Shown: positions 34,825 to 58,100 of the stretch, piece by piece
How the letters are laid out: the number at the start of each line of letters is the position of its first letter
How positions within the stretch are numbered: the first letter of the stretch is position 1
Assembly (NCBI GenBank): GCA_964355135.1
Contig: CAYHCG010000006.1
Span: 9,453-73,452 of the forward strand
Direction of reading: 5' to 3'
DNA: 64,000 nt
From: Candidatus Woesearchaeota archaeon
GTDB taxonomy: Archaea; Nanobdellota; Nanobdellia; Pacearchaeales; GW2011-AR1
Notes under the pieces: generated by a model
Seen by the model: only the letters and a program-made list of their open reading frames with translations
Told to the model about the DNA's origin: nothing
Database searches by the model: none
Translations under genes and position numbers: made by a program

Positions 34825-37800
34825 ATGACTGAAAAAATTGATTTTCTAAATGAGAAAAGAAAGGAATTACTGGAAAGAATTAATGTTGCGCAAAATTACA
34901 AAAAAGAAGTTGGCGAAAAAGTTCAGAAACTTGCAGCAAGATTTAGCATAGGAGAACTGAATTTTTTTGAGTATCATCAGGAACTGAAGAAAAATTTTGG
35001 AGATAAGTCGCCTGCTGATTGGATCGAGTACTATGACAAGTATATTGAAAAGTGCCGCACGGAGCTTAAAAAGTGCGGCGAAGAAATAAACGAGTTGAGA
35101 ATAAAAAAAGTTGCAAGATTTTCTCCTTTGATTTTGGTTATTTTTATCTTTGCACTAGTTCTTTATTATAATTTTAAAGATAGTTCTATCTTACTTTCAC
35201 CTTCCGAAATATTCACTGAAAAAATAAATTTTGTGGCTAGTGAAGATGGTTCATTTATGTTTGAGCCACAACAGGGAGGGAGACTTAGCAGTTTGAGAAT
35301 TTCAGGAGATATTAATGGAGGAGGAAATGTTAAAATTTATCTCCAAGCGAATGGAAATGAATTATTGATTTTAGATAGCGACGCTATAGGGTATAAAGGA
35401 ATAAGCGGGCTTGCAATAGAAGAATTCGATAGAGTTCTTGATGAAAATGAAAGTATTGAGAAAAATGCAACTATTTTAGTGGAAGAGAATATTGAAACTA
35501 TTGAAGTTAACGATAGTTTAGATGATATAGAAAATAAAACTGAAGCTAACTCAGAAATCAAAAAAGGATTTGTTAATTATTGCAATGAAACTTGTGATTT
35601 AGACAGTATTGATTTAGGAGACTCTTATGAAATAAAAATTGTGATAGGGGGAGAGGCCGAGGTTATAATTGAGGAGATTAACTATAAGATTACTAAGAAA
35701 GAGGTAAGAGAAGATATCGAAATAGAAACTCCTAGAAATGAGACAAATCAGACTGTAGTTAGAGATATAGAAAAAATTGAAAGAAAAAATGCACAAGGAA
35801 AAGAAGTAGTTGTGAAGAAAAAGCAAGGCGAGAAAAATATAATTGTAGAGACTACAGTTCCTATTGAGTGGAACGTGAAAGACGCAGGAAAAATCAGAGT
35901 AAGATGGAAAGAAGGAGGAGAAGAAATTAATTTTAATGGTGAAGATACAAATAATGACGGAATTATCGATAGTATTACTTGGGTTGTCAGTGATCTAGAA
36001 AGAGATCAAACTTATGAAATTATTGTGATCACAAAAGCAGAACATCTTGATACTGATAGAAGTTTTGTTAGTGATATTTACGATTTAGTTAAAGAGCAAG
36101 ATGGAGTTTGGAGTGAGAGTATTGGGGATGGAGAGTATGTAAGAGTTACTTTTGAAATCCCCCTTGATAGTACGAGAGATATAACACTCTGGTCTAGAAC
36201 GGTGAGTGGGAATCCTCGCGTTGAAGTGTATGAAACAAATGGAAATGTAACAGTTGCTTCATTTGAAAGTTTGAATGATGACGAATATAATAAGGTTTAT
36301 TTGACGGGACTTTCTGGAACACAAGAGACATTTGATTTGAGAGTTGTTGATGGTTCAATTGAACTCGATCATGTTATTGATCCTTATTTTTCTGATAAGG
36401 TTAAACTGTATTTTAATAATACTGCTACTCCAATTGGAGGAGCATGTCCTACTGGAAATAAAAAAATGGGAACTGCTGCACCCAACTCTGTTGTTATAAT
36501 CTGGCCTGGAGAGTTTGACAGCGGTGTTCCTGGGAATACGGATGCAGGGCAGTGGTATTCTGGGAGTGTTAACAGAGCAAATACGACATTATCTACTCAA
36601 ATTGCTAGCGCTACCCAGAGTTCAAGAAATTCAAATAGCTTCGGGCAGGGATGGATGTACGATGAGGATTTGACAGGACTGACTTTAGATGCAGGAAACT
36701 TTAGTTTTAATCTTTCTTTGATGGGTGGGCAGATGTCTGCAATAAACAGCGCAGAAAGGATCTTTGCCAGAATAAGTGTTGTTAATTGTAATGGTGGGAA
36801 TTTTAATTTAGTGCAAGATCTCACATCGACCAATATTGTTGGGGAAATAAGTCATACTGGGGGTCAAAACGGGTGGAAGGCAAATGAGGGAGGAAGAATA
36901 AACCATCCAGCTGTTTCTGCCGTCGTAAATGTCAATGTTAATTTTTCAACAAATCCTTATACATTCAAAAATGGGGAGATGTTGTTTATAGAATTGGGAT
37001 TTGGAGATGCTAGTAGCAACATTGATAGAACTATAGGATTGAGATACAATATTGCAAATTCTTTTGTTGTGACTCCTCCGTTTTTAGATAATACTCTGCC
37101 TTATGCTATTTTGAATGAACCTATGAATGACTCTAGATTTGTGGTAGGCGTATTTAACATTTCATTGAATGCAACAGTTGCTGATGAAACTATTTCTGAC
37201 TTGCTAAATGGGGAAATTTATGGGGTGAGAAACGGAAATGAGGCAGATTTTTACAAACATGGATTATTGAGTCGGAGATTTAATTTTACTAATGGAACGC
37301 AGGCGGTTTATAACTGGACTGCTCCTGTTGTAATTCCTGATGCTTCTACTGTTGTATTGTATCATTTAGATAATAATTCAAGATACGGAGAGAGTCAGAC
37401 CGAAGCAGTAGATTATGTTTCCGCGAATGTTAATTTAACTCCCGTCGGGAATGCTTTTCCTAATCAGACTAGCGGAAAGTTTGCAGGAGGGTGGGAATTT
37501 GACGGAAACGGAGACTACTTGGGTGATGCTTCCAATTTAGGGGCATTAAACGGAGTGGATAATGCAACTTTTGCTGCGTGGATAATGAGGGCTGGAGCAA
37601 GTTCTACGGGTCTAGAAGTTATTGTTCAGGAAGGTGGGCAGGGCAGAGGATTGGCACTGATTGCGAACTGCAACAATAACATGATGCAGTTTGGGGTAAA
37701 AGAAGGAGGCGTTTATTATGCTGCTAATGCATCTACTTTCTTGCTTAATGATGAGAACTGGCATCACTTGGCCGGAGTGTATGATGGGGATGCAGACACT

Positions 37801-39702
37801 ATTAAATTATATTTTGATGGTGTTTTAATGAATACTACTATTGCTACTACAGATATTGTAAATCCTGCTGTTGGAATAAGAGTTGGAGGAAGTGGTGGGG
37901 GAATTAGTCAGGGAACTTCATGCGCTTCTTCTAGTGTGGCAAGTTCATTTAATGGGACGATAGATGAAGTAGGAATATGGAATAGTAGCTTGACTGCTAG
38001 TGAAATAAAAGATCTTTATAGATTGAAAGTCGGAAAATATTATTGGAAAACTAACGTAACTGACCAGATTGGAAATAACAATGAAAGCGAGACAAGAGAA
38101 TTTACGGTAATTAATTCCCTACCTATTATATCTGATGTCAATGCAACGAACGTAACGCAGAACTTTGCAATGATCAACTGGACAACAGATTATGAGACTA
38201 ATAGTAGTGTTAATTTTGGCACGAATATGGCTTTGGGAACTAATATAAGTGAAAATATCTTAATCACAAAACATAATATTAGTCTAGCTGGTCTTTTATC
38301 AAATACACTTTATTTTTACAACGTAACTAGCTGCAGTTTTGATAATTTCTGTTCTACTAGCGGAACTTTTAATTTCACTACTTTAGCTTTATCTAATCAG
38401 GCTCCGGTTGTTAATTTTGTTAATTTTACGGATACAGGCGCTGTTCTGGGGGGAGTACAACCTGTTTTAATTAATTTCACTGTAAGCGACCAAAATGGTT
38501 TTGGAGATATAAATGACCCTAGTTCTAAAGTTGAAATTTACAATCTAAGCTTAACTGGCGCAGTAAGAGTAAATTCAACTTGCAGCGCAGTAGGTAATGT
38601 TGATGCAGATACAAGAAATTATAATTGCGTTGTTGGAATGTGGTATTTTGATCCTTATGGAATGTATACAGTGAACGTTACTATAAGAGATAATGCAGGG
38701 GCAAGAGCAGAGAATTCAAGCAGAGTTTTCCAGTTTATAGCTACTCCAGGATTTACTATGTCTCCTAATAGTATTAGTTGGCCTACCTTAAGTCCTGGGC
38801 AGAGCAATATACCGTCTATTGAAAATTTAACAATAAATAATACCGGAAACGTGGCTTTTTACAATGTTAGCATTACTGCTTTTAATCTAACTGGCGTAAC
38901 TGATTCAGGAAATTATATTCCTGCTATGAATTTCTGGGGCGGAGTAAGCTTTAACCAATGCAGCGCTCCTGCGACACAATTGAGAGACGATGGCAGCGTC
39001 AATATAAGTAACGCCTTTCTAAATACTGGGAATTTGTCTATTGGGGCAGGCGCGGGTCAGGAAGAAATATTTTTCTGCCTAGCTAGCGTTCCTGATCCTT
39101 TGCTCAAACAGACTTACTCTACTGAGGTTGGAAATCCCTGGCAAATTGAATTATTTACTGCAGCTTTGGTCTTGAGTGGATCAGTTGGCAGAAAGAGAAA
39201 AAGGAAAATAACTCTGGAAAATGAAGATTTACTTGAACTCTTGGGAGATAGGCTGGAAGAATTACTCGAATTAGTTAAGGCGAACAAATTAAGGGAAAAT
39301 AAGGTTGCAGAAAATAAAGAAATAGTTGTTCCTTTAGATATCTTTAAGCAAGAGGGCGGAGCTGCAGAGTCTTTATGCAAGTATCTTAAAGATAATAAAG
39401 GGATGAAGTTCAGCGAGATTGCGAGATTATTAAAAAGAGACAGAAGAACAATAAGCTTGAATTATAAGAATACGCAGACTAAAATACTGCCAGAGAATTT
39501 TGGCGAAAATGAATTTTACGTTCCTGTACGGATATTCTCCGATCGCAGACTAAGCATACTTGAGAGTCTTGTGTCATATCTAAGAAATAAGGGCTATAAG
39601 AATGTCGAAATTGCAAAAATGCTTGAGCGTGACCAGAGAAATGTCTGGACACTGCACTCCAGGGCAGCTAAAAAATTAAGAGTAGAAAATAAGAATATTT
39701 AA
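34825..39702 (+). CDS. giant surface protein B (1625 aa), paralog of A
   Basis: The N-terminal domain aligns with A (LERINVAQNYKKEVGEKVQKLAARF vs AERIFLAQRYKKEVIEKVQKLVAKL). TM at ~35113-35175. It carries the shared AEHLD module, a LamG unit (~37096-38109; ENWHHLAGVYDG...LYFDGVL; SFNGTIDEVGIWNSSLTASEI) and FN3 (INWTTDYETNSSVNFG...LYFYNVTS). It ends with the MWYFD Ig module, WQIELFTAALVLSGSVG + RKRKRK, and the tail. Confidence 0.9.
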   Translation: MTEKIDFLNEKRKELLERINVAQNYKKEVGEKVQKLAARFSIGELNFFEYHQELKKNFGDKSPADWIEYYDKYIEKCRTELKKCGEEINELRIKKVARFSPLILVIFIFALVLYYNFKDSSILLSPSEIFTEKINFVASEDGSFMFEPQQGGRLSSLRISGDINGGGNVKIYLQANGNELLILDSDAIGYKGISGLAIEEFDRVLDENESIEKNATILVEENIETIEVNDSLDDIENKTEANSEIKKGFVNYCNETCDLDSIDLGDSYEIKIVIGGEAEVIIEEINYKITKKEVREDIEIETPRNETNQTVVRDIEKIERKNAQGKEVVVKKKQGEKNIIVETTVPIEWNVKDAGKIRVRWKEGGEEINFNGEDTNNDGIIDSITWVVSDLERDQTYEIIVITKAEHLDTDRSFVSDIYDLVKEQDGVWSESIGDGEYVRVTFEIPLDSTRDITLWSRTVSGNPRVEVYETNGNVTVASFESLNDDEYNKVYLTGLSGTQETFDLRVVDGSIELDHVIDPYFSDKVKLYFNNTATPIGGACPTGNKKMGTAAPNSVVIIWPGEFDSGVPGNTDAGQWYSGSVNRANTTLSTQIASATQSSRNSNSFGQGWMYDEDLTGLTLDAGNFSFNLSLMGGQMSAINSAERIFARISVVNCNGGNFNLVQDLTSTNIVGEISHTGGQNGWKANEGGRINHPAVSAVVNVNVNFSTNPYTFKNGEMLFIELGFGDASSNIDRTIGLRYNIANSFVVTPPFLDNTLPYAILNEPMNDSRFVVGVFNISLNATVADETISDLLNGEIYGVRNGNEADFYKHGLLSRRFNFTNGTQAVYNWTAPVVIPDASTVVLYHLDNNSRYGESQTEAVDYVSANVNLTPVGNAFPNQTSGKFAGGWEFDGNGDYLGDASNLGALNGVDNATFAAWIMRAGASSTGLEVIVQEGGQGRGLALIANCNNNMMQFGVKEGGVYYAANASTFLLNDENWHHLAGVYDGDADTIKLYFDGVLMNTTIATTDIVNPAVGIRVGGSGGGISQGTSCASSSVASSFNGTIDEVGIWNSSLTASEIKDLYRLKVGKYYWKTNVTDQIGNNNESETREFTVINSLPIISDVNATNVTQNFAMINWTTDYETNSSVNFGTNMALGTNISENILITKHNISLAGLLSNTLYFYNVTSCSFDNFCSTSGTFNFTTLALSNQAPVVNFVNFTDTGAVLGGVQPVLINFTVSDQNGFGDINDPSSKVEIYNLSLTGAVRVNSTCSAVGNVDADTRNYNCVVGMWYFDPYGMYTVNVTIRDNAGARAENSSRVFQFIATPGFTMSPNSISWPTLSPGQSNIPSIENLTINNTGNVAFYNVSITAFNLTGVTDSGNYIPAMNFWGGVSFNQCSAPATQLRDDGSVNISNAFLNTGNLSIGAGAGQEEIFFCLASVPDPLLKQTYSTEVGNPWQIELFTAALVLSGSVGRKRKRKITLENEDLLELLGDRLEELLELVKANKLRENKVAENKEIVVPLDIFKQEGGAAESLCKYLKDNKGMKFSEIARLLKRDRRTISLNYKNTQTKILPENFGENEFYVPVRIFSDRRLSILESLVSYLRNKGYKNVEIAKMLERDQRNVWTLHSRAAKKLRVENKNI
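39190..39699 (+). other. C-terminal tail of giant B with two sigma70-region-4/LuxR-like HTH units
   Basis: Unit 1 is about 39321-39487 (AAESLCKYLKDNKGMKFSEIARLLKRDRRTISLNYKNTQTK). Unit 2 is about 39513-39677 (LSILESLVSYLRNKGYKNVEIAKMLERDQRNVWTLHSRAAKKL). Confidence 0.65.
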
Positions 39703-41220: not shown

Positions 41221-41311
41221 AAGCTATAGTTTTTCATGTTTTTAATAGAATTTATAACAATATTTAAATACTATAAAACACTACAAAACATAGTAAAAAA
41301 CAATATTGACA

Positions 41312-41551
41312 ATGGTAAAGGCGACAATAGAAATTCCGGAACGAGAAGATAGAATATTGAATATAGTTAAAGGTAAATATGGATTTAAGAATAAAACAGA
41401 AGCTTTGATTTTTATTGTAGCCGATTATGAAAAGAGTTTAGAACCTCAACTTAGACCCCAATATCTGAAGAAACTTAAAAAAATAGACAAGCAAAAAGGC
41501 ATCCCCTTTAACAACATTGAAGAGTTAAGAAATATGATTGAGAAGGATTAA
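41312..41551 (+). CDS. small antitoxin-like protein upstream of the RelE/ParE-like gene
   Basis: 80 aa (MVKATIEIPEREDRILNIVKGKYGF...). Ends 1 nt before the toxin ATG. Confidence 0.5.
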   Translation: MVKATIEIPEREDRILNIVKGKYGFKNKTEALIFIVADYEKSLEPQLRPQYLKKLKKIDKQKGIPFNNIEELRNMIEKD

Positions 41552-41552
41552 A

Positions 41553-41828
41553 ATGTATAATTATGAGATCAAACCCAATCTTGGGGCAATTCTTAAAAAA
41601 TTATCTAAAAAAGACAAAGTTCAATATTTAGCTCTTATGAATAAAATTCAGGAAATTATTAACTCTGGAAATATTGAGCATTATAAAAATCTCAAATATG
41701 ATTTAAGCGCATTCAAAAGGGTTCATGTGATGGGAAGTTTTGTATTGATTTTCAAGTATGATAAGAAAAATAACATTATTTCTTTCGAAGACTATGATCA
41801 TCATGATGTTATTTATGGAAAGAGATGA
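41553..41828 (+). CDS. RelE/ParE-family toxin-like protein
   Basis: About 91 aa. The layout with the KRVHVMGSFVLIFKYDKKNNIISFEDYDHHDVIY C-terminus is typical of RelE/ParE-fold toxins. Confidence 0.6.
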   Translation: MYNYEIKPNLGAILKKLSKKDKVQYLALMNKIQEIINSGNIEHYKNLKYDLSAFKRVHVMGSFVLIFKYDKKNNIISFEDYDHHDVIYGKR

Positions 41829-42320: not shown

Positions 42321-44258
42321 ATGAAGATGATTAATAATAAGGGTTTGAGTAGCGCAGTCATTATTACTCTTAGCGTTTTGCTAGTTATCGGCGCTACGGT
42401 TATAGTTTGGGAATTTATAGGGCCGGTTATAAAACATTTACGAGGGATAAATACTTTTTCTCCGACAGGCAATCTTTCTAGCGAGACTTCGGGAGACTGT
42501 ACATTAACAGAAGCAAACTGGAATAATGATAGTGGCCTAGAGGGAGAAACTCTTGGAATGAGTGTTGAAGGCGAGAATTGTGAAGGCAAAGAAATAACGT
42601 TTAGAGTTTTTGAAGGGGATTCTTCTAATGGGGATGATGATGTCAACCTTGCTCCTTCGCCTGATAAAGCGATATTTATCAATGGAAAAGCCGAGACTGT
42701 GTGGGTAGCTGAGTGGCAGGCTGACTGTAATGGATTATGCAATCCCCCTGAATACTTTTTTGAAGCTTCTCTATCTGAGCAAAAAATAGAAAGCAATTTA
42801 ATTGAAATCGGAAGGACAGAGGGAGACTTGTCCCCTTTAGAAGACTGCAAGACTATAAAGTATCACGGGGATGGAAGAGTGGACATTGTAATATTTGCCG
42901 AGGAGACCATTGCTAACCAATATGCAGAACACATGCTTAGCTTTTCTCCTTTAAATGAAAATAGAGGCGCATTTAACTTTTATTATATTGATGATTATAC
43001 TCCAGATTGTGAAATTTACAAGGGTATTGCTTTGTTATGCAGATCGAAAGAAATGGTAAAGAGAGCTGCATCCTGTCCTAATGATTATATTATGGTTGTT
43101 GAAAGTCATCCTAGCTATGTAAGAAGCTCTGCCTTTATGAATGTGATGAGTATTAATTCTAATTTACCTCCTGCAGAGGTTGTTCAGCATGAATTTGGAC
43201 ATGTTTTTGCTGCATTGGCTGAGGAATATACCCCAGCTATCTTGCCTAAAAACTCTAAAAATTGCGTTGAGAGTTGTGACGAATTTAACGTTAAGGATGG
43301 TTGTTATCAGGGATGTTCAAAAGGAGAGTTTTATAGATCGATAGAAAACGGTGTAATGAGAACATTATCTTCTAATGATTTTGGTATTTTTAACAAAAAA
43401 CTAATTTTAGAAAGATTAGAAGACTCTGTTTCTTCAAGTGTGCCAATAACCGGGGGAGTAATATTGGATCCTAGTGCATGCAATCAAGAAAATTATTATC
43501 TAATTGAGGGAAAATATGACGCCAGTACAAATGAGTTAGACTTGCATAAGGCGACTCTTCAACCTGGCTGCGCGGGTACTAATGGATATGGTGATGTTGA
43601 ATATACTATCATTGAAGACGGAGACGATATAATCGTGGAAGGAAGTTTTAATCCGGTATATATTTTTAGCGATGGAATTGGAGAAGAAGGAGTTAACGGA
43701 GAAATTGAGGGCGATACTTTCGTAAATGAAAAAGAGTTTTACTTGAAAATTCCTAAGCCTGCTACAAATGGAACTAATCTAACTATTTATCCTCCTCAGG
43801 GCGGAGGACCAAGCGGGACATGCTTCTTGCCTGATACGATGATTATTACCCCAAGTGGAAATAAAATGATCAAAGATATTAAAGAAGGAGATGTAGTAGT
43901 AAGTTATAATGAAGCAACTGGCGAGAGGGAAAACAACGCAGTAACAAAAGTATTCAGACATCAAACTGACTCTTACTTAATTATCAATGGTAAATTGAAG
44001 GTGACCGCAGAACATCCTATGATGGTTAATGGAATATGGCAGGAGATTGGCAAGGCTAGAGTAGGAGATGCGTTACAGACTGCAGATGGGCAGCATGTCG
44101 TATACTCGATAGAAGACGTAGAAGAAAGTGTTGAAGTATTCAATTTAGAAGTTGAACGTGATCACACTTATTATGCAGAAGGGTACTTAGCGCATAATAA
44201 GGGGCCTGGAGGGTTAAGCACTCATTTAACTGTAGGTGAGGACGAGTACATTCTTTAA
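42321..44258 (+). CDS. signal-anchored zinc metalloprotease (HEFGHVFAALAEEY, M64-like by eye) with C-terminal Hint domain
   Basis: N-terminal hydrophobic AVIITLSVLLVIGATVIVW. HExxH plus EEY. C-terminal CFLPDT...TAEHP...YLAHN. Confidence 0.85.
   Translation: MKMINNKGLSSAVIITLSVLLVIGATVIVWEFIGPVIKHLRGINTFSPTGNLSSETSGDCTLTEANWNNDSGLEGETLGMSVEGENCEGKEITFRVFEGDSSNGDDDVNLAPSPDKAIFINGKAETVWVAEWQADCNGLCNPPEYFFEASLSEQKIESNLIEIGRTEGDLSPLEDCKTIKYHGDGRVDIVIFAEETIANQYAEHMLSFSPLNENRGAFNFYYIDDYTPDCEIYKGIALLCRSKEMVKRAASCPNDYIMVVESHPSYVRSSAFMNVMSINSNLPPAEVVQHEFGHVFAALAEEYTPAILPKNSKNCVESCDEFNVKDGCYQGCSKGEFYRSIENGVMRTLSSNDFGIFNKKLILERLEDSVSSSVPITGGVILDPSACNQENYYLIEGKYDASTNELDLHKATLQPGCAGTNGYGDVEYTIIEDGDDIIVEGSFNPVYIFSDGIGEEGVNGEIEGDTFVNEKEFYLKIPKPATNGTNLTIYPPQGGGPSGTCFLPDTMIITPSGNKMIKDIKEGDVVVSYNEATGERENNAVTKVFRHQTDSYLIINGKLKVTAEHPMMVNGIWQEIGKARVGDALQTADGQHVVYSIEDVEESVEVFNLEVERDHTYYAEGYLAHNKGPGGLSTHLTVGEDEYIL
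43821..44198 (+). other. Hint (intein/Hedgehog-type) domain, 126 aa, followed by a 19-aa tail
   Basis: Cys1 in GT|CFLPDTMIITP (block A), KVTAEHPMMV (block B TxxH), VFNLEVERDHTYYAEGYLAHN (blocks F/G, terminal HN). The +1 residue is Lys. Confidence 0.8.
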
Positions 44259-47736: not shown

Positions 47737-50634
47737 TTAAACAATATCTGAACCTGGAGGAAGAGGCCCCTTGTTATGAACTAAAAAGTCTTCTGCGAAG
47801 TAATTGTGGTTGTTTTCAACTTGTAGATTGAATACTTCTACACTGTTTTTTATTTGCTTTATGGAAAATATTGTTTCTTCTCCATTGTTCAATGTTCTGA
47901 TATTATCTCCTATATTTGCTGAACCTATTTCTTGCCATTGATTATTGACAAATATAGGATGATTTGGAGTAACTTTGAGTTTTCCATTAATAATTAAATA
48001 AGATTCGGTCTGATGTTTGAATACTTTAGTAACTTTGTTACTTTCCATCTTATTGCTTACTTCATTATAACTTACTACTACGTCTCCTTCTTTAATGTCT
48101 TTTATCATTGCTTTTCCATTTTCTGTGGAAATCATAGTATCGGGCAAGAAACAAGCTCCCGAAGTAGGAGGATTTCTTACACAAGTGCCCCATTGACAAG
48201 ATGAATTACAAATCTTAGTTCCTGCTGCTCCATAACCTGCATCGCAATTCGTTTTCTTTCCTATAGGTTCACATTGTTCTCCCGCATCAATTATTCCATT
48301 GTTGCAACCTGCTGGGAAAGTAATTACTAATTGAGGTGTTGGATAAGTTGCATAATTCCCATCTGCGGGATGATAATTAATTTGTAAAATTGCATCCGTC
48401 CCAGGAACAAGGCCTGTAATATCATAACCTCCTCTAATGCCTAATACTGTCCAGGCGTTACCTCCTCTATTTATCCAGGATAATTCGGATAATGCCAAAT
48501 TGTTTATTCCACTAGAACCTTGGAAGATCGGAACTGAAATTGGGGATAGGGTTGTAAATTTGCTATAATCGCTCATTCCAAAGTTTGGAGGGGCCAACAG
48601 ATCAATTTTTGCAAGCTTTATATAATTTAAGCTGGAAGGTGAAGCGTTTGCTGACATAACAGATTGATGTATTTCTACTTTTGCAGATTGTATATTAATT
48701 GTTGTTGGGATAAGAGAAGTTTTAAATGGTAAGATGATTCTAGTAATTTCATTGTTATTGGTGAGAGTTTGTGCGTTTCTTAATTGCATGAGGGGTAAAG
48801 AACTATATTGATTGACATATGATCCTGCGGATAATGCTCTTAAGTTATCGAAACCTCCATTGTTTCCATTTATAGATTCGGCTCTGATGAACCCATCTAA
48901 GGAAACTGAAGGGATTTTTATTGTACAAGTTGTAGAGGTACATACAGTATTAATTTTACAATCATTTTTACAATAATCGGCATTGTTAGTATTGCTATCA
49001 TCACATTGCTCGCTCAAATAATTGAAGTATCCGTCTCCGCAAGTGTTATTGACACAATTATTACGGCAATTATCCCCGTTATTTGTGTTGCCATCATCAC
49101 ATTGTTCTCCTATTTCTAAAACTCCATTAGAGCAAGATGCTGGAGTCTGACCTGTACAATCTGAATTACATTGAAGAGGGTCGCCATTTAAAGAAAGGCC
49201 ATCATCACAAATTTCTTGACCATTTATTTTTCCATCACCGCAGGATTGTATTGGATTACAAGTATGGATGTTAGTGCATTGTAAGTTGCAATCTGCTGTC
49301 CCCAAGTAGCCTTGTTGATTATAACAAGAAGTACTTCCCCCATCACAAAACTCATTTAAATCTAGACGTCCATTTGAGCATGAGGGCCCTCTACACAAAT
49401 CTCCCAAGATATTGCAATCGCCAAAACCACACGGATCATTACTACATGCAACTAAATCTGAATTATAGTCTTCACATTTGTTTTTATTTAAACATGTGTT
49501 TGGATTGTTAGTAATAACACAATTATTTGAACAAGCATCATTATCAATTTGATTTCCATCATCACATTCTTCATATCCATAATTAAGAATTCCTCCTAAA
49601 CCTTTGCCATTAGGAGTTTGCAAGACTGAATCTCCGCAATAGGTTAAGGCGCAGGATTCATTACATTGATCAAAGTTAGCATTAACTCCAGAATCATCAC
49701 ATTCTTCTGGAGTTTCTAAAACTCCATTGCCACAACCAGGAGATAAAGTATAAACTACCTTTAAATTAGGATGAAAAGAGGTTTGAGGGTAATTTGAAGA
49801 TGTGAAACTAAACATTATATCTTCTCTATTATCCGATTGAGTTCCTCCTAATAGGTCTCTGCCAGTTATTAATCCTATATTTGTAAATCCGATTTTATTA
49901 ATCTTTGTTAGACCAAAATCGTTAAATGGAAGATCTAAAAATTGTCCAATATATCCATCTAATAATATTCTATCTGTCGAGTCTATTATTTCTGAATTAA
50001 ATTTATTAAAGTCTGAATTTGTTAGTGATTGGGGATTTGATGGATTGGCTTCTACAAGGGTTATAAAATTATTTGATTCGGTAGAATAATAATAGTGGAA
50101 TGTTGGTTTAATAGATAACGTGGATGATTGAATTAATGCATTTTTTGGAATTAGTTTTGTGTCAAATGATAAAAGAGATCTATATAATTCGGATGATATT
50201 GCAGAAGAAGAAAATATTCTTGATTCTGCATTTAATGAAGTACTCATTTTTGATACAAGATTTGAAGTTGGAGAATTTCTTAAATCGTTAAAATTATTAG
50301 TTAACATAGATTTTTGGAAAGTTGAATCTTCAGGGAGGGAATTTAAATTTGATTCGCAATGGTTTTCGGTTGGATTAAAGGTGTCAGTGGGTGCGCATTT
50401 AATGTCTCCAGAGATGTTTACTATTAGATAATTTTCATTTGCTTCCAGAGTTGTGATTGTAATTCCATTTGCAGAGTCTGTGAATGTTTGTTCCAGAAGA
50501 AGAGCTGCGGTGAGTAAATTTCCTCCGATTTGTGTTGGCAGGGTGAGATCAAGAAGTTGTGTATCTCCACCATCAACGTCTTTTTTCCATTGTATTCGAG
50601 CACCCTCATAACTGTAAGGAAGGTAGTCTCCCAT
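47737..50634 (-). CDS. C-terminal portion (965 aa) of a frameshift-split surface protein: Cys-rich CGDG..EECDDGN repeats plus terminal Hint domain
   Basis: At least five repeats of the type CGNGVLETPEECDDSG...C / CGDGKINGQEICDDG...C (Myxococcus-type Cys-rich repeat pattern). C-terminal Hint domain. The frame stays open upstream of the listed ATG to 50679. Confidence 0.75.
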   Translation of the reverse strand: MGDYLPYSYEGARIQWKKDVDGGDTQLLDLTLPTQIGGNLLTAALLLEQTFTDSANGITITTLEANENYLIVNISGDIKCAPTDTFNPTENHCESNLNSLPEDSTFQKSMLTNNFNDLRNSPTSNLVSKMSTSLNAESRIFSSSAISSELYRSLLSFDTKLIPKNALIQSSTLSIKPTFHYYYSTESNNFITLVEANPSNPQSLTNSDFNKFNSEIIDSTDRILLDGYIGQFLDLPFNDFGLTKINKIGFTNIGLITGRDLLGGTQSDNREDIMFSFTSSNYPQTSFHPNLKVVYTLSPGCGNGVLETPEECDDSGVNANFDQCNESCALTYCGDSVLQTPNGKGLGGILNYGYEECDDGNQIDNDACSNNCVITNNPNTCLNKNKCEDYNSDLVACSNDPCGFGDCNILGDLCRGPSCSNGRLDLNEFCDGGSTSCYNQQGYLGTADCNLQCTNIHTCNPIQSCGDGKINGQEICDDGLSLNGDPLQCNSDCTGQTPASCSNGVLEIGEQCDDGNTNNGDNCRNNCVNNTCGDGYFNYLSEQCDDSNTNNADYCKNDCKINTVCTSTTCTIKIPSVSLDGFIRAESINGNNGGFDNLRALSAGSYVNQYSSLPLMQLRNAQTLTNNNEITRIILPFKTSLIPTTINIQSAKVEIHQSVMSANASPSSLNYIKLAKIDLLAPPNFGMSDYSKFTTLSPISVPIFQGSSGINNLALSELSWINRGGNAWTVLGIRGGYDITGLVPGTDAILQINYHPADGNYATYPTPQLVITFPAGCNNGIIDAGEQCEPIGKKTNCDAGYGAAGTKICNSSCQWGTCVRNPPTSGACFLPDTMISTENGKAMIKDIKEGDVVVSYNEVSNKMESNKVTKVFKHQTESYLIINGKLKVTPNHPIFVNNQWQEIGSANIGDNIRTLNNGEETIFSIKQIKNSVEVFNLQVENNHNYFAEDFLVHNKGPLPPGSDIV
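47773..48153 (-). other. Hint domain, 127 aa, followed by an 11-aa tail
   Basis: GA|CFLPDTMISTE, KVTPNHPIFV, VFNLQVENNHNYFAEDFLVHN. The +1 residue is Lys (KGPLPPGSDIV). Close paralog of 43821..44198 at the DNA level too. Confidence 0.8.
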
Positions 50635-51821
50635 TGGAGGATGAGTGAGGGGAGGGCTGAAGCATCTGTTCCAATCGGCCTACGATATTCTATGCTATAA
50701 AATGATCCGTCTTGGAGGGGTATTTTGATCATCTTTGTTCCATTTGAAATTTCTATAGGTTCTATAGTATAATTCCCTTGTTTTGGATTATAATTCTGAA
50801 TTTGACTTTCTTTCAACCAACCAATGCTCTCTTTATGTAAAACATTAAAATGGCCTTTATTGCCCGCAACCCCCATTACATCTAATGAATCGCCATAAAC
50901 TGATGATGAACAAGGGCCTTGTGAAGGGAGATTATTATTACACCACCATCCGTTTGCATGCTGTAAACCAAGATTATGCCCAAATTCATGTGCAAGAACT
51001 CCATTATCTATATTTTCTGGCTTCATAACTAATGAAGTGGATAACCAAATTTTTGTATCTTGGAGATTAAACTCAGGAATTCCGATATTAGCAATCCCTT
51101 CTAAATTATTTCCACAAATTCCTTCTTCGAAGATGATTATTAATCTTGTGTAGGATTCTATGTTTATATTATTGTTCTGGAAGAACTGGGAATTTCTCAT
51201 ATCAGTTGGATTACAATAAATTTCATTTGCACTAGCCTGCGTCCAATCTAAAACCTCTCCAGTTAGCCATGCCCTATTATAAGAAACTTCTTTTATCCAT
51301 GAATTTAGAGAGTCAGGGTTTGTTAAATCGAATATATTTGCTATGATTTGTTCACGAGTAAGTGGGGGGGCAGATGTTCTAAAAATGGGGACAATTAGGG
51401 TTTTTTGTTCACCCAGATTAAAGTTTCCCCTGTTGTTGACTGAAGCAACATTAGCTTCATTTGATAGTATTTTTAGATAACCTGATTGACTTATAGAAAT
51501 TATTCTTAATCCTTGATCTACCTCTCCAAAAATTTCAATGTCTTTTCCAGAAATTAATTCTTTTGGTATTTTTGGGTAGTTGAAATTATCAATTATTTCA
51601 TATTTGAAGATACCTGAATGGATATAGTATTTAATTGTGTAAGTAAGGTCGATATTTTCTACAATTACAACTTCTGATTTACCATTTAGAGTCATAGGAG
51701 ATAAAGATATTGATGGTTCTTGCAAGAAATTGTTGACTATTGGAGCTAAGATAAATATTAATATGCCGATAAAAATTAGAATGGACAAGTAAGCGATTCT
51801 GCTGTTCACTCTTTTTTTCAT
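50424..51821 (-). CDS. N-terminal portion of the same split gene: signal-anchored metzincin-type zinc metalloprotease
   Basis: N-terminal IAYLSILIFIGILIFILAPIV. HEFGHNLGLQH fits HExxHxxGxxH exactly. Sensible sequence stops near ...IEYRRPIGTDASALPS (~50650). The remaining ~70 codons look out of frame. Confidence 0.7.
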   Translation of the reverse strand: MKKRVNSRIAYLSILIFIGILIFILAPIVNNFLQEPSISLSPMTLNGKSEVVIVENIDLTYTIKYYIHSGIFKYEIIDNFNYPKIPKELISGKDIEIFGEVDQGLRIISISQSGYLKILSNEANVASVNNRGNFNLGEQKTLIVPIFRTSAPPLTREQIIANIFDLTNPDSLNSWIKEVSYNRAWLTGEVLDWTQASANEIYCNPTDMRNSQFFQNNNINIESYTRLIIIFEEGICGNNLEGIANIGIPEFNLQDTKIWLSTSLVMKPENIDNGVLAHEFGHNLGLQHANGWWCNNNLPSQGPCSSSVYGDSLDVMGVAGNKGHFNVLHKESIGWLKESQIQNYNPKQGNYTIEPIEISNGTKMIKIPLQDGSFYSIEYRRPIGTDASALPSLILQWETTFLTVMRVLEYNGKKTLMVEIHNFLISPCQHKSEEIYSPQLFFWNKHSQTLQMELQSQLWKQMKII

Positions 51822-52103: not shown

Positions 52104-55100
52104 GTGGTTCATAAGAAGTACAAATGGAAAAATGGCAAGAAGTATGGTCCTTATTATTATGAAAATAAAAGGGTTGGAGATAAAGTTGTTACGACATATT
52201 TAGGAAGACATCACAAATTAGAGAGTAAAAATGAAGATAAGAATGTAGGAGAACTGACTGTAACAAGTAAGAAAAATTACTTTTTTATCTTGGGGATAAT
52301 ATTAATTATTGGATTTTCTTTTGTCTTTTATTTTATTGGCAAAGGGGTCTTTTTTTCACCTGATTTTAAAGCGATTGAGATTAATTTAGATAAGGAAAAT
52401 TATAATGCGGGAGAACAGCTTAAGGGAAATGTATTATTAAATTTAAGACAAGGAGAGTTGATTCCTATTGATTCTAAAGTGATGATTACTTTTGAGGGGA
52501 TTGAAAAGGAGATAAGTGTAGGGGAAAATGTCGGAGTTGATAAAAATAAGGGAACTTATTATTTAACTAATGGTGAATTAATTGGAAGTGGGGAAGGATA
52601 TGGAATTGCAGGAACAAAAGAGATTTATCCTGAAATCGAGTTTGAGTTAATTTTAACTGAAACTAATGGGGGAGAGGTTAATGCAGATAGTGAAGAAAAT
52701 GTTAGTGATGGTGTGATTGGGGGTGGGGGAGATGGTGAAAGTAGTGGGGGTGGGAATGAAGGACCAGCGATAGAGGAAAATACTGGAGAAACTCTACCTG
52801 AGAATGAAGAAGGTCAAATTCCAATAGTTAGTGAAGAGACTCCTCAAACTCAGACGGAACCGGAAGAAGCCCCTACAGGAGAGGTAACACTGGAAAGTGT
52901 ACAACCTGAAACGGGGAATAGTGAAACAGTTCAAGAGACTACACAAGAAGCGACTGTTTCAGATACTGCAGAAAGCAGTTCTGATAATGGGGGAGATAGT
53001 TCACCCAGTGGAGAAAGCAGTGGGGGAACAGAAAGTGGAGGAGGAGAAGTCAATGGGGGAGAAGTAAGTTTATCTCCAAATGAAGAAATCATATCTGGAA
53101 AAGTTAGAAAGGGAGAAGACTTTATTTATGAAATAAAAGAAGGGCAACTTGTAAAGGTAAAAGAGGGAAGTGTAAAAGTAAATGGTGAAAGTGTTGAAGA
53201 TAATCTAGTGGAGTTGAAAATTGAGGATGGGAAGGTAATTGTCTCTACAACATATGCTGAGATTGAAGAGGGTTTTGGAGAGGAATTTTTGGGAGATGAG
53301 TTTTTAGAAATTAGGATAAATATTGATGAACTAGGATTTATTGTAAATGAAGAAGGAAGTTTGGATGTAGGTTTAATTATAGGAGAAAGAGAGGTCTTGA
53401 AAACAACGAAGGAAATAATACTCAGAGAAGTAAACGAGAGTATTATTAATCAGAGTGAATTAATTGAGACACCAATTAATGAGGCCATAATAAATCAGAC
53501 CATAGTTAATGAAACCATTTTGAATGAGACTATAATTGAGACAAATGTTAGTAATTTAACTGGATATGGTGCAATATTAGGGCAACCGGTTAAATGGGTT
53601 AAGAGAGTTGAAGTATTGACTGGGGAAACTGCAGTAAAATTTGATGTTCCAAAGAGTGCTGAAAAATTAATTGCTAAGAAACGTGATAATAGGGGAAGAG
53701 AAGTGGAAATAGAAGATTTTGAAAAGGGTGAAATAAAGAAATTTGAATTTGAGGGTGAAGTGGATTCTGGGAAGAAGGATGATGTAAAAAGTGAACTAAA
53801 TGATTCAATTATTAATGAGACAATTGTTGAAGAAAACAAAGATGATAATATTTTGGATGAAAATAAGAATATTGGAACAGGGAATGAAGAGAATGAAAAT
53901 GTAGGAATTGGAAATGGTGAAAATATTGATTCTATTGTTGAACCTGAAATATCTTTATCTCCAGAGATAGTTGAGGGTAAAGAAATTAATGTTAATGTTC
54001 CTATAAATGCTTTAGAAGTTGTTTTGGAATATGAGACGCCCGCTCCTTATGCAATTGAGGAAGAGACTTCTAAGGGCAAGATTGTAAATGTTATTGGACC
54101 TAACGATGTACATTATGAAAATGTTTTGATATTTACAAATTTAAATGAAGGTTTGAATATAATTGATTCATCTAAAATTAGGATAATCTGGAAAGAAACA
54201 GGACAGGTGATAAATGTATTAAATGCAAACGATACGAATAATAATAGTATAATAGATTATATCCAGTTTGTTGCTCCGAGCTTGAGTAATCAGACTTTTG
54301 AGATTATTGTGATTACGAAAGCTGAACATCTTGATCAAAATAGAAGTTTCATTAATGATATTTTTGATAGTGTTAAAGCTCAAGATGGAATTTGGAGTGA
54401 GATAATAAATGATGGAGAGTATGTAAGAGTAACTTTTGAAATTCCTCTAGATAAAACAAGAGATATTACCTTATGGCCTAGAACTGTAAGTGGAATTTCG
54501 AGAGTTGAAGTATATGAAATTGATGGGAACACAACTGTTGCTTCATTTGAAAGTTTGAATGATAATGAATATAATAAAGTATATTTGACAGGACTTGCAG
54601 ATGGTGTAAGTCAGGATACTTTTGATTTGAAAGTTATGGGGGGAAGTGTGGAACTGGATCATGTGATTGATCCGCAGCCTAGCGGAGCTACAAGATCTTG
54701 CAATATGAATGGGTCTGCTTCAAGTACTGGAGTAAAATGTTTAAATGGAGCTGCTGGAAAGAATGAAGATTGGACTAACGGGACTATTGATTCTTGTATA
54801 GACAAAACTAGCACACCAACAGTATATGTCAGGGATATGTGGGTAAATGACTCAAATATTAAATCAGGAGATAGTGTCAATGTTAGTTGTAGTTTTGTGG
54901 GTGGAGGTTCAACAAGATTGGCATCGTTTTTTTATAACGATGGAGTAAGTGGATGGATTAATACAAGCTCTTTTCTCTATGGGACTGGATCTGGTAATAT
55001 TAATATTACCCATCCTATTAAAATTGCAAATAAATCAGGAATTCATTATTTTAGATGCTGGATATCCAGCGATAGTACTTCTTGTAATACTACTACTCCT

Positions 55101-58100
55101 TGCTGTGGAAATTCAATGGCAGATAATGATGATTTTTCATTTAGTGCATGCGGAACTGCAGGCGTCGCTACCTCCTCACTTAGTAATTGTTGTCCTGGAT
55201 TGATTGCTATTCATAATGGAACAAATTTAGTTTGTGGGACTGAAAGTGATTGTTCAAGCTACCCGAAAAGATATTGTCAGAATGCGACCGGAGACTATGG
55301 AATATGTGTTAATTATAATGCAACGGGATCGCTAATAACTGGAGTTTGCGATACTGTTGCTCCTGTTGCTTCGAATTCAAGTTCTGAAGCATTTTTATCT
55401 TGTGTTGCGGATAAATGGAGGAATTGTGATAACACTTTAATAGGGATAGGATTTTCTAATGATGGTATTTGTGTCGATAATGATGTATGTTCAATTTTAA
55501 GTGTTGGGGGGAAGAATGATACTGATAAGCAACCCGATACTTTAGTTGCGAATATAAGTTGTACAGACACAGACTATGGGTGCTTTAATTCATCCTATGA
55601 TGGAAGAACTTGTGTCGGAATTCCAATAACTCCCGTATCTTCTCCAGAACCTTCAAAAATTGGAATAATTGCTGGAAATAAAAGCGGGGGGGCTGGAGGA
55701 AATGGTGATGATGCTTCGCCTTGTTGTTATCAAGATACCTTCTTTGTTTTTGATGGAACAGGGGATCATATCTATGGTAGAAATGAAAGTGATTCTACAC
55801 CATATGAAGGATGTGGATATAATTTTCCTAAAGATGGATTAACTTGTGTGAATTATAGGCAATACGCTAATTGGGACGGTATAAATGATACAGATATTGG
55901 AGTTTCTGTAAACTCTACTTCTTGTGAATTGGGACTTGTAAGTAAAAACAGTTCTGGGAATTATTTGAATACATGTTCTGGGAATGAAAATGGAACATGT
56001 GATACTGATATAACTCTTAGCGGATATGTTCCTGATGGGACATGTTATAATACAAATGGTCAGGGAGTACAATGTGAGACAGATGACGCAAATGGCTCTA
56101 CGACAACAACAAATTGTATTTATAATGGGGAAATACTTCCTCATGGACAGACTGGGAATTATACTGCTGGGGGAAATGCGAGTATTTTATGTGCGAACAG
56201 TAATTTGTATTATTGTGTATATCAAGCTGATTTATCTCCGACTGTGGGGATAAATAGAACTAATAATTGTGATCCTGTTCCTGGAACTAATTTAATTTGT
56301 CAGAATGCGGGAGTTACTAAAGGGCTATGGCTTACTACGATATTTGATGGGGCTTCTTGTACTTGCAGTAAGGGAACTGAATGCAGCAGCGGCTTATGTG
56401 AAGAATTATCTGGACAAGGATATTGTAGGGGTAGTTGTAATTTTGCAGGCAATATGTGTTCTAATAATAGTCAGAGTTATTTGGTTGGGGGTACATGCAC
56501 GGACTTTGATGGATGTATTATGGGGCCTATTTATAAAAGCACTTCTCTTGTTTTACGTCCAGGGTGTACTAGTGGGAATGCAGGCGTGAATATATGTGAT
56601 AATAACGGAACTGGAGGATTTATTGTGGAAGGAATATGTACTAATAATGGTAGTGGATTTGGAGTTTGTGACACAAATGATACTTACTTTGATGATGAAG
56701 CAGGAATTTATTATGCAAATGTTCAAGTGAATATGACTAATTATACTTCCGAATTGAATAATGGGGGAGGATTCGGGGATAGTTGTGATAATAATGTCAG
56801 TAATGGGCTTTATAGTGCAGTTGGGATGGCTGTAAGTAATCTTGGAAATATGACCTTGACCTGCAATGCATTTAGCAGAACGGTTATGATAAATGCGACA
56901 AATTCATTATATGTTGGGAATTGCAGCCTTGGTGGTGGAGAGAGGTGCGATAATTCTACGGGACTCTTGGGGGGCAGTATAAGTGATTCATTTTTTGCTA
57001 ATGGAATATGTGTAAATAATTCAGATGTTGCTCATTGTTCAACAACTACTGCCGCAAGAAATAATTATACAAATGGGTCTTTATATGGGGCTAGTTTAAT
57101 TTATTCATCTAGTTGCACTTTTTTGGCAAATAATTCTCAATGTGATTTAGACGTAAGTGATTCATATTTTAATTTTACCAATAATACTGGAACAACTTCG
57201 GGAGTTTGTTATTCTGGAAGTTGTGTTCAATGCGGGCAATTTGAGATTGCGCCTACTCAATGTTCTGGCGGAATAGATGACGATTGTGATGGGTTAATTG
57301 ATAGTAATGATCCTAATTGTCAGCCCCCAATTGTAACTATAAATTTCCCTACTAATAGAACTTATTTTTCGAGTAATTTGCATCTGAGCTTTAATGTTTC
57401 ATTAAACATAGATACAGGTAGCGTTAGATATAGTTTAGATGGGGGAATAAATAACAAAACAATGTATAATTCAAGTGGGGGGATGATTGGGCGATATTTC
57501 AATGCGACAAATAGTTCTATTGCGGACGGTAATTATACTTTCAGAGTGTACGCTAACGACAGTTGGGGCAACAAGAACGAAACAGCGAAAGTTAATTTTA
57601 CATTTGAGAATACTGATTTGACGGGATGCAAGAATTTGACTTATGCAGGGCAGACTTACAGACTTATTGGAGATATTCAAACAACTTCAACATGCTTTAA
57701 TATTCTGGCCAATAACATTACTTTAGATGGAAATGGAATGAGCATTGTTTATGGGAATCAGTCTGGAGGTACATATTATGGTGTTACTGCGAACAATTTT
57801 AATGATTTAATAATAAAGAATTTGAGCGTAAGTAGGGGAACTTCTGCAGGGTCTAATGATTTAAGATATGGGATCTACTTAATTAGGTCGACAAATTATT
57901 TAGTTAAAGATATCAAAGCCAATAATAATTATTATGGGATTTATTTAAATGACCCTTCTTTAGGGTTCAGTTCTTACTCGAATTTAAACAACATCATTGC
58001 AAATAATAATTCAATTGGTATTAATGTCCGGAAAATACATTCACTTAACTTTAATAATATTGTCGCGAATAATAATAGCAATAGGGCGATTTATGTTCAG

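Follow-up and report, generated by a model that had tools for sequence, protein, structure and literature searches.

Hint domains of the bacterial intein-like (BIL) and polymorphic-toxin (PT-HINT) kinds have been described mainly from bacteria, and the Hog domains of Hedgehog proteins are not known to have a C-terminal His-Asn motif. Type A BIL domains are defined by a cysteine at the first position (Cys1), a TxxH motif, a C-terminal His-Asn pair and the absence of Cys, Ser or Thr at the position that follows the domain (+1) (reviewed in PMC4031507); in those that have been studied cleavage is dominant, although splicing by aminolysis without a +1 nucleophile does occur (PMC4031507). In Tetrahymena thermophila, the BIL2 domain of BUBL is flanked by ubiquitin-like domains, the upstream one of which is conjugated to lysine epsilon-amines (PMC8616854). 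In polymorphic-toxin (PT) systems the HINT peptidase directly precedes the toxin domain, and classical systems of this kind are rare in archaea (PMC3482391). Here we describe a Hint domain encoded in a gene at 42321-44258 on the forward strand of a 64,000-nucleotide stretch of a Candidatus Woesearchaeota genome (GenBank assembly GCA_964355135.1, contig CAYHCG010000006.1, positions 9,453 to 73,452; the whole stretch is called the window below). The host protein is a predicted exported, M64-like zinc metalloprotease of a DPANN archaeon; its Hint is a type A BIL/PT-HINT domain, and it lies within the host protein's own C-terminal tail.

Identity of the Hint Domain

A sequence-only reading of this DNA had proposed a complete 126-aa Hint domain with Cys1, TxxH and HN, followed by Lys and a tail of 19 aa without a +1 nucleophile, and both its coordinates and its residues proved exact. 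The domain starts at GT/CFLPDT (the slash marks the cleavage site) and ends at YLAHN, with Cys501 in block A, Thr562-Ala-Glu-His565 (TAEH, nt 44004-44015) in block B and His625-Asn626 in block G. The scissile bond at the front is predicted to be Thr500/Cys501, in a linker whose pLDDT (AlphaFold2 confidence) falls below 50 at aa 491-495 in the model of the Hint and at aa 495-500 in the model of the N-terminal part; the tail at the other end, short and acidic, is modelled as disordered, with a block-mean pLDDT of about 50.

With the full protein, PT-HINT (PF07591) was the sole Hint-superfamily Pfam model over its threshold (54.4 bits, E = 2e-14, against a cut-off of 27.7; 58.2 bits with the isolated domain), while Intein_splicing (PF14890) stayed below its cut-off of 35.8 with either query (27.8 bits for the full protein, 33.6 for the isolated domain). 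Two other models, Hint_2 (25-29.9 bits; cut-off 28.4) and Vint (23.6-27.7 bits; cut-off 27), just passed as well when the isolated domain was the query. Among the NCBIfam models, intein_Cterm was passed (21 bits; cut-off 15.6) and intein_Nterm was not (18.1 bits; cut-off 24.5). The best sequence match to a solved structure was to a BIL domain, 2lwy (E = 8e-12), and Tetrahymena BIL2 was matched at 1e-6. An AlphaFold2 model of aa 491-645, built from 56 sequences (mean pLDDT 89, pTM, its predicted template modelling score, 0.82), showed the horseshoe beta fold of the superfamily, whose block A Cys and block B TxxH are also present. In a Foldseek search of the PDB it gave 61 matches at E <= 0.001, the best 50 of which were all BILs, inteins, Hedgehog or Vint at a probability of 1.00, led by Tetrahymena BUBL BIL2 (6y75/6tmm), the Clostridium thermocellum BIL 2lwy and mini-inteins, in that order.

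Since Cys1, TxxH, His-Asn and a non-nucleophilic +1 residue match the published definition, the domain is of the type A BIL/PT-HINT kind, not a Hedgehog-type module or a canonical intein; that Pfam's PT-HINT can be equated with the type A BIL domain is our own equation. Its setting is also that of a type A BIL, namely the variable, Gly-rich tail of a non-conserved secreted protein in which it is sporadically present. The Hedgehog-like layout seen by the sequence-only reading is a superficial resemblance: the Hedgehog Hint model (PF01079) reached 15.7 bits, with the isolated domain only, against a cut-off of 29.7, Hedgehog 1at0 came at rank 34 of the structural matches, the sterol-recognition region is missing and a terminal His-Asn is present. 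A Hedgehog system was rejected on these grounds.

Position Within the Host Tail

None of the approximately 120 other homologues of the N-terminal 490 aa of the protease, nearly all of them from metagenome-assembled genomes (MAGs) of Pacearchaeota, Woesearchaeota or Nanoarchaeota and most about 367 aa long, carries a Hint. Two related genomes, represented by a groundwater contig (L002) and by a locus (L034) of the Woesearchaeota MAG GCA_964358765.1, share the gene order of the window: a giant LamG protein, proteins of about 296 and about 190 aa, small genes and the M64-like protease, then proteins of about 555 and about 472 aa and, beyond them, other Hint-bearing proteins. The syntenic proteases (P0004 and P0006, 545 aa each) have no Hint. 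When aa 501-626 are removed, the window protein is collinear with Hint-less P0002 and P0004 right to the stop codon, the junction reading ...TIYPPQGGGPSGT^KGPGGLSTHLTVGEDEYIL in the window protein and ...TIIPPTGGTGCGN---GGCQTHVGLNDF-LPV in P0002. The 19-aa tail and the tail of P0002 have a Smith-Waterman score of 34, compared with 15.4 +/- 3.5 for 5000 shuffles (p = 0.0008), and the tails of the other Hint proteins showed no resemblance to it.

To judge by this alignment, the tail from about GGLSTH onward is the native C-terminus of the host protein. The Hint, which the sequence-only reading had taken for an appended terminal module, is thus embedded in the host sequence. Because the homologues and the syntenic orthologues are Hint-less and the Hint-deleted protein is collinear with Hint-less tails, the parsimonious reading is that this lineage alone gained the Hint, within the Gly-rich linker of the host tail. 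The guanine-plus-cytosine content of the Hint (0.384) equals that of the cargo (0.381), so there is no sign of a recent foreign origin and the gain would not be recent (ameliorated).

Related Hint Domains

A word-indexed search with the Hint alone recovered one relative only; an exhaustive search of representative proteins recovered 15,762 at E <= 1e-3, with 116 at E <= 1e-30. At 57-67% identity, the closest Hints lie at the ends of unrelated DPANN surface proteins (Cys-rich DUF4215-repeat proteins and an M6-like protease), with HN/K and then 7-14 residues; more distant relatives, with tails of 3-36 aa, end subtilases, bacterial type IV pilin-like proteins and an archaeal pilin-like protein. 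By these relatives' sequences, the window Hint is one copy of a module that has been shuffled among the C-termini of surface proteins of DPANN archaea and of the candidate phyla radiation (CPR).

The catalytic Cys and Asn, whose lack of conservation in homologues would have counted against the sequence-only reading, are conserved, the catalytic residues being invariant in the 20 closest relatives. Across the 248 complete copies within the 150 best hits, Cys1 is present in 246 and His-Asn in 245; in a second, independent set of 67-76 copies the counts are 67/67 and 76/76. Lys occupies the +1 position in 212/248 (85%) and in 48/76 (63%) of the independent set, and Ser, Thr or Cys does so in 7/248 (3%) and 3/76. 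In species-representative genomes the clade occurs in Woesearchaeota, Aenigmatarchaeota, a Methanosarcinales MAG and many Patescibacteria (CPR) and, further, in Omnitrophota, Planctomycetes and some Gammaproteobacteria MAGs. Tails measure 1-14 aa in the four copies from DPANN or unclassified archaea, and 339 aa follow the Methanosarcinales copy.

The window itself encodes a second, paralogous Hint with 63% aa and 70% nt identity to the first. It ends a large M6-like protease/DUF4215 surface protein (ORF 47737-50634, -), followed by HN/KGPLPPGSDIV, and has been retained in the orthologues P0162 and L008 of the two syntenic genomes, that is, in three genomes in total. In this neighboring gene the Hint is 65-68% conserved compared with 58-60% for the cargo, which argues for purifying selection, the Hint being maintained and not decaying.

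Several features of other clade members may be noted. In loci of CPR/Patescibacteria and other bacterial MAGs (L016, L017, L019-L032), the Hint lies in the middle of ORFs of at least about 1600-1700 aa, whose upstream ends are often cut at the locus edge, between conserved, near-repeated flanks (...GAEKGG/C...HN/xEKGGG...F.DTAYWNP...SFKLPD); from their sequences, these copies have the look of genuine intein-style insertions in a single conserved host family. A large set of others (P0123, P0127, P0133, P0141, P0152 and more) carry 3-5 tandem Hint copies, each ending HN/KGGGG..., followed by Gly/Ser-rich linkers and a 400-500-aa C-terminal region with hydrophobic stretches. Near-identical 11-aa tails follow HN in two unrelated Hint proteins (the 965-aa protein of the window, at 47737-47772, -, and P0146/L007) and in the L008 orthologue of the former: KGPLPPGSDIV, KGVLPPGTDIQ and KGPLPPGLDIQ. 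Such a tail may move together with the Hint or contain a small signal; the tail of our protease has only KGP in common with it.

The Metalloprotease Cargo

The N-terminal anchor and the metalloprotease motif proposed by the sequence-only reading both held. The motif HEFGHVFAALAEEY spans aa 290-303 (nt 43188-43229), and H290, E291, H294, E302 and Y303 are invariant across 55 homologues (alignment A3). PF09471 (Peptidase_M64) is matched by 47 of these 55 sampled homologues at E <= 1e-3, and two M64 structures, 3p1v and 4df9, are matched by a family profile (E = 1.5e-5), the match lying at the HEFGHxFxxLAxEY motif. We use the name "M64-like" because the window protein itself, at 22.5-23.6 bits, is just under the PF09471 cut-off of 26. 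A Foldseek search with a model of the N-terminal 500 aa found nothing on the catalytic domain, immunoglobulin matches to the two beta-sandwiches dominating the output; since the fold search is uninformative for this domain, the M64 assignment is one of sequence profiles.

The N-terminal beta-sandwich is confined to a long subfamily (P0002-P0006), most of the homologues of about 367 aa spanning only about half of the query. The family's C-terminus is a hot spot for extra modules, which include Cys-rich extensions, dockerin domains, extra Ig-like domains and transmembrane tails (P0005, P0081, P0084, P0093, P0098 and P0120), and this fits the Hint having been picked up there.

The N-terminus, NNKG/LSSAVIITLSVLLVIG, combines a KG/LS motif with a hydrophobic helix, as in archaeal class III (pilin-like) signals, and the pattern [KR][GA][LI][SGN] followed by a hydrophobic stretch is also found in P0002, P0004, P0006 and P0177. 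Scans of N-terminal peptides with the pilin N-terminal hidden Markov models of Pfam and NCBIfam gave no match for the window protein and sub-threshold BasC matches for P0006 (E = 0.007) and P0177 (E = 0.02). The start of the protease thus resembles a class III signal in sequence, and the idea remains an unproven lead because the BasC matches are sub-threshold and limited to two homologues. A type IV pilin-like N-terminus is combined with a C-terminal Hint of the window clade in P0249, P0252, P0275, P0277, P0279 and P0177, the bacterial ones having a prepilin N-methylation motif (PF07963) or a PulG label and P0177 an archaeal-looking KRG/LS; the N-terminus of the protease (NNKG/LSSAVIITL...) looks similar to these.

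Gene Neighborhood

The ORF (open reading frame) of the protease encodes 645 aa and ends in a TAA stop. Five contigs from groundwater of the Hainich aquifer carry the identical 645-aa protein, two listed sites being from different samples, so it is not an assembly artefact or chimera. The window additionally encodes CDC48, deoxyhypusine synthase, TrmB and a YGR210-type GTPase and is therefore archaeal; together with the named homologues from Pacearchaeota, Woesearchaeota and Nanoarchaeota, this bears out the sequence-only reading of an archaeal, predicted exported zinc metalloprotease. The features of the gene and the paralogous Hint are listed in Table 1.

Table 1. Positions of the protease gene, its domains and the paralogous Hint in the window.
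Feature	Positions	Strand	Basis
Whole gene: M64-like metalloprotease (predicted exported) with intein-like domain in C-terminal tail	42321..44258	+	ORF list, translation
N-terminal hydrophobic anchor helix (aa 7-40)	42339..42440	+	AlphaFold2 helix aa 7-40; pLDDT >90 over aa 11-30
N-terminal beta-sandwich domain (aa 61-164)	42501..42812	+	AlphaFold2 strands; Foldseek Ig-like matches only
M64-like zinc metallopeptidase catalytic domain (aa 177-371)	42849..43433	+	Invariant zinc site, family profile
C-terminal beta-sandwich domain (aa 391-490), in all family members	43491..43790	+	AlphaFold2 strands; conserved in alignment A3
Gly/Pro-rich linker PPQGGGPSGT (aa 491-500), N-terminal flank of Hint	43791..43820	+	Aligns with P0002 PPTGGTG
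Hint domain, type A BIL/PT-HINT kind, 126 aa (aa 501-626)	43821..44198	+	PF07591, 2lwy, AlphaFold2/Foldseek
+1 Lys627 and tail, 19 aa in total (KGPGGLSTHLTVGEDEYIL)	44199..44255	+	Translation; host-tail alignment; +1 Lys in related Hints
Second, paralogous Hint	47773..48153	-	tblastn E = 1e-53; PT-HINT 40.2 bits

The region from about 34.8 to 51.8 kb resembles a surface-protein island whose gene order is kept in two other DPANN genomes. The locus is flanked by three giant ORFs on the forward strand, at 20411-29299 (2962 aa), 34825-39702 (1625 aa, with a LamG/Laminin_G_3 domain) and 52104-61103 (2999 aa). Directly upstream of the protease are two small overlapping genes (41306-41828, +) for an 81-aa DUF2683-like and a 96-aa protein; on the syntenic groundwater contig a VapB/PIN toxin-antitoxin pair (L002 5081-5751) fills this slot, and the syntenic MAG locus (L034) has neither pair there. 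On the reverse strand, 47737-51821 encodes an M6-like metalloprotease (ORF 50424-51821) and DUF4215 Cys-rich repeats with the C-terminal PT-HINT (965-aa ORF 47737-50634). The 1386-aa orthologue P0162 aligns to this region in two frames, with the switch between 50619 and 50661, so the window copy of the gene has a frameshift (pseudogene, assembly error or recoding).

Discussion

We consider it probable, though well short of assured, that this gene encodes an N-terminally anchored extracellular M64-like protease whose Gly-rich tail has acquired a BIL-type Hint that excises itself after export. The observations behind this are the identity of the domain, its intact catalytic residues, its position in the tail, its absence from orthologues and the shuffling of the module; the processing and the nature of its products are what we infer from them. 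After export and folding, an N-to-S acyl shift at Cys501 would convert the Thr500-Cys501 bond to a thioester, and Asn626 would cyclise with the help of His625, cutting the Asn626-Lys627 bond. The thioester might then be hydrolysed, leaving a protease that ends at Thr500 and setting both the Hint and the 19-aa peptide free, or the freed amine of Lys627 might attack it, rejoining the protease to its native tail. With either outcome the Hint would have removed itself and the mature protease would be kept on the cell by its N-terminal helix; the net effect would be C-terminal maturation or heterogeneity of a surface enzyme, and not toxin release or Hedgehog-type lipidation.

Two ideas of the sequence-only reading need amending here. 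Its view that full splicing is unlikely agrees with the predominance of cleavage, but type A BILs without a +1 nucleophile do splice by aminolysis (PMC4031507). Release of the protease from the surface, which it had also suggested, does not fit the topology: because the sole hydrophobic anchor is at the N-terminus, a cut at Thr500/Cys501 would shed the Hint and leave the protease in place.

Several points weigh against self-excision after a gain in the tail. Self-processing, be it before or after export, is deduced, as are its products. The homology of the tail rests on about 17 residues and is significant against P0002 only (P0004, p = 0.12). Neither direct repeats nor an insertion scar spanning the boundaries of the Hint were found when its flanks were searched. 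No donor copy was found either; the Hint stands at much the same distance (57-67% identity) from several relatives, among them the paralogue in the window. Finally, N-terminal cleavage alone would suffice for simple self-removal at a C-terminal site, and 99% conservation of His-Asn together with 85% conservation of the +1 Lys hints at a reaction more specific than self-removal.

An alternative is a Hedgehog- or sortase-like transfer, in which an external nucleophile (the amine or hydroxyl of a lipid head group, an envelope polymer or a host-cell surface protein) attacks the Cys501 thioester and tethers the C-terminus of the protease covalently. Thioester formation is a general property of Hints; Tetrahymena BIL2, the nearest relative among solved structures, joins the cargo on its N-terminal side to epsilon-amines of lysines through isopeptide bonds (PMC8616854); and in DPANN archaea, presumed to be host-attached, the module, with its strongly conserved catalytic residues, is found repeatedly at the very C-terminus of surface proteins. 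However, a disordered tail of 19 aa stands where a sterol- or adduct-recognition region would be needed, the Hog model is under its cut-off and Hedgehog is a distant structural match, the protease is already anchored by its N-terminus, the Hint-less orthologues evidently work without such tethering and no acceptor is indicated by the sequence. Moreover, the conserved His-Asn implies C-terminal cleavage or ligation, which Hedgehog-type transfer is not known to need. We regard such a transfer as unlikely; the covalent attachment proposed by the sequence-only reading is possible chemistry but, with nothing in this analysis that supports it, speculative. A similarly doubtful alternative is that the Hint folds but is catalytically silent and has been retained for a structural, adhesive or spacing role. 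Inefficient BILs do occur in nature, that of Magnetospirillum having spliced only after a mutation at +1 (PMC4031507), and autoprocessing in the window clade is read from sequence, but all of the residues for both cleavage steps are present and 99% conserved across the 248 copies, and such conservation would be unexpected in a domain freed from catalytic constraint.

That the Hint is a canonical mini-intein, a selfish element restoring an intact host protein by standard four-step splicing, is very improbable. Its intein-like position inside the host sequence, the Hint-less orthologues, the passing score of intein_Cterm and a Cys near the position of the +1 residue in P0002 would suit this idea, but the branched-ester step is impossible because the +1 residue is Lys and not Cys, Ser or Thr, residues that occupy this position in only 3% of related copies; at 126 aa the domain is too small for a homing endonuclease, and the insertion site is the disordered, non-conserved tail of a non-essential surface protein, not a conserved active-site motif. 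This candidate was rejected on the +1 residue and on the Intein_splicing score, which is below its cut-off. Slimmer still is the chance of a pre-toxin Hint that releases a C-terminal toxin as in bacterial PT systems. PT-HINT is the best Pfam model, and a relative from Nanoarchaeota is labelled "polymorphic toxin-type HINT domain-containing protein" by NCBI, yet just 19 disordered residues follow the Hint and resemble the tail of Hint-less P0002, and the downstream gene encodes a conserved 555-aa surface protein that is present also in Hint-less loci. With no toxin domain and no immunity gene at the locus, we rejected this reading as well.

Beyond self-excision in this one protein, the Hint clade with +1 Lys on DPANN and CPR surface proteins might constitute a distinct, ATP-independent amine ligase, marked by the nearly fixed +1 Lys together with 99% Cys1 and His-Asn; a lysine or other amine would resolve the thioester at the C-terminus of the cargo. 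With the epsilon-amine of Lys+1 as acceptor the product would be branched through an isopeptide, and with an amine of the envelope or host surface the cargo would be anchored covalently in sortase-like fashion; Tetrahymena BIL2, the closest structural relative of the clade, carries out such a reaction on ubiquitin-like cargo. We think this a long shot. If true, it would be a general covalent device for surface display or host attachment in ultra-small episymbionts, whose surface proteins (in DPANN and candidate-phyla bacteria alike) are thought to mediate attachment to the host, and a small, cysteine-only Hint that possibly ligates through an amine would be useful for protein engineering.

Literature searches for Hint, PT-HINT or intein-like domains in DPANN, Woesearchaeota or Patescibacteria found nothing relevant, and no description of Hint/BIL domains on DPANN or CPR surface proteins was found in the literature searched. 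The type of domain is already known and the window protein is an archaeal addition to the type A BIL/PT-HINT domains; it gives no evidence for Hedgehog-like signalling or lipidation in archaea. The arrangement of cargo, Hint, HN/K and short tail is a recurrent architecture in DPANN archaea and candidate-phyla bacteria. One surface protease in one neighborhood, with the Hint here and without it in two related genomes, is a natural comparison, and because this Hint-plus/Hint-minus pair stands in a conserved neighborhood, it is a clean test case for the effect that a type A BIL has on the protein carrying it.

Comparison With Known Systems

The cargo has the HEFGHxFxxLAxEY zinc site in common with peptidase family M64 (IgA peptidase; Bacteroides 3p1v and 4df9), from which it differs as a distant archaeal branch, just below the Pfam cut-off, that has numerous conserved cysteines, additional beta-sandwich domains and a membrane helix at the N-terminus. 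With Hedgehog/Hog (PF01079, 1at0), the window protein shares the order of cargo and then Hint near the C-terminus, a Gly-x-Cys-Phe-like site, Cys1 and TxxH; it differs in that its Hint is embedded in the host tail, with the host C-terminus after it, lacks a sterol-recognition region and has the His-Asn motif for C-terminal cleavage. Tetrahymena BUBL BIL2 (6y75/6tmm) is the top structural match (E = 8.5e-12, TM-score 0.78), and both domains have Cys1 and a terminal Asn, the deposited BIL2 structure being that of a C1A-N143A mutant; identity is only 25-28%, however, and the window domain has a protease for its cargo and a disordered tail of 19 aa downstream.

The likeness to the type A BILs, such as that of Clostridium thermocellum (2lwy; the best match by sequence and among the best by fold, with a target-normalised TM-score of 0.85 and a root-mean-square deviation of 1.7 A), extends to many features: the Hint fold, Cys1, TxxH, the terminal His-Asn and the lack of a +1 Cys, Ser or Thr are common to both, both are about 130 aa without an endonuclease and lie in a variable, non-conserved part of a secreted protein, and the chemistry to be expected is alike, with a thioester, Asn cyclisation, predominant cleavage and possible aminolytic splicing (PMC4031507). 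Unlike them, the window Hint has a DPANN archaeon and not a bacterium for a host, lies 19 aa from the C-terminus of its protease and so has no downstream domain to release, and belongs to a sub-clade in which the +1 Lys is nearly fixed (85%).

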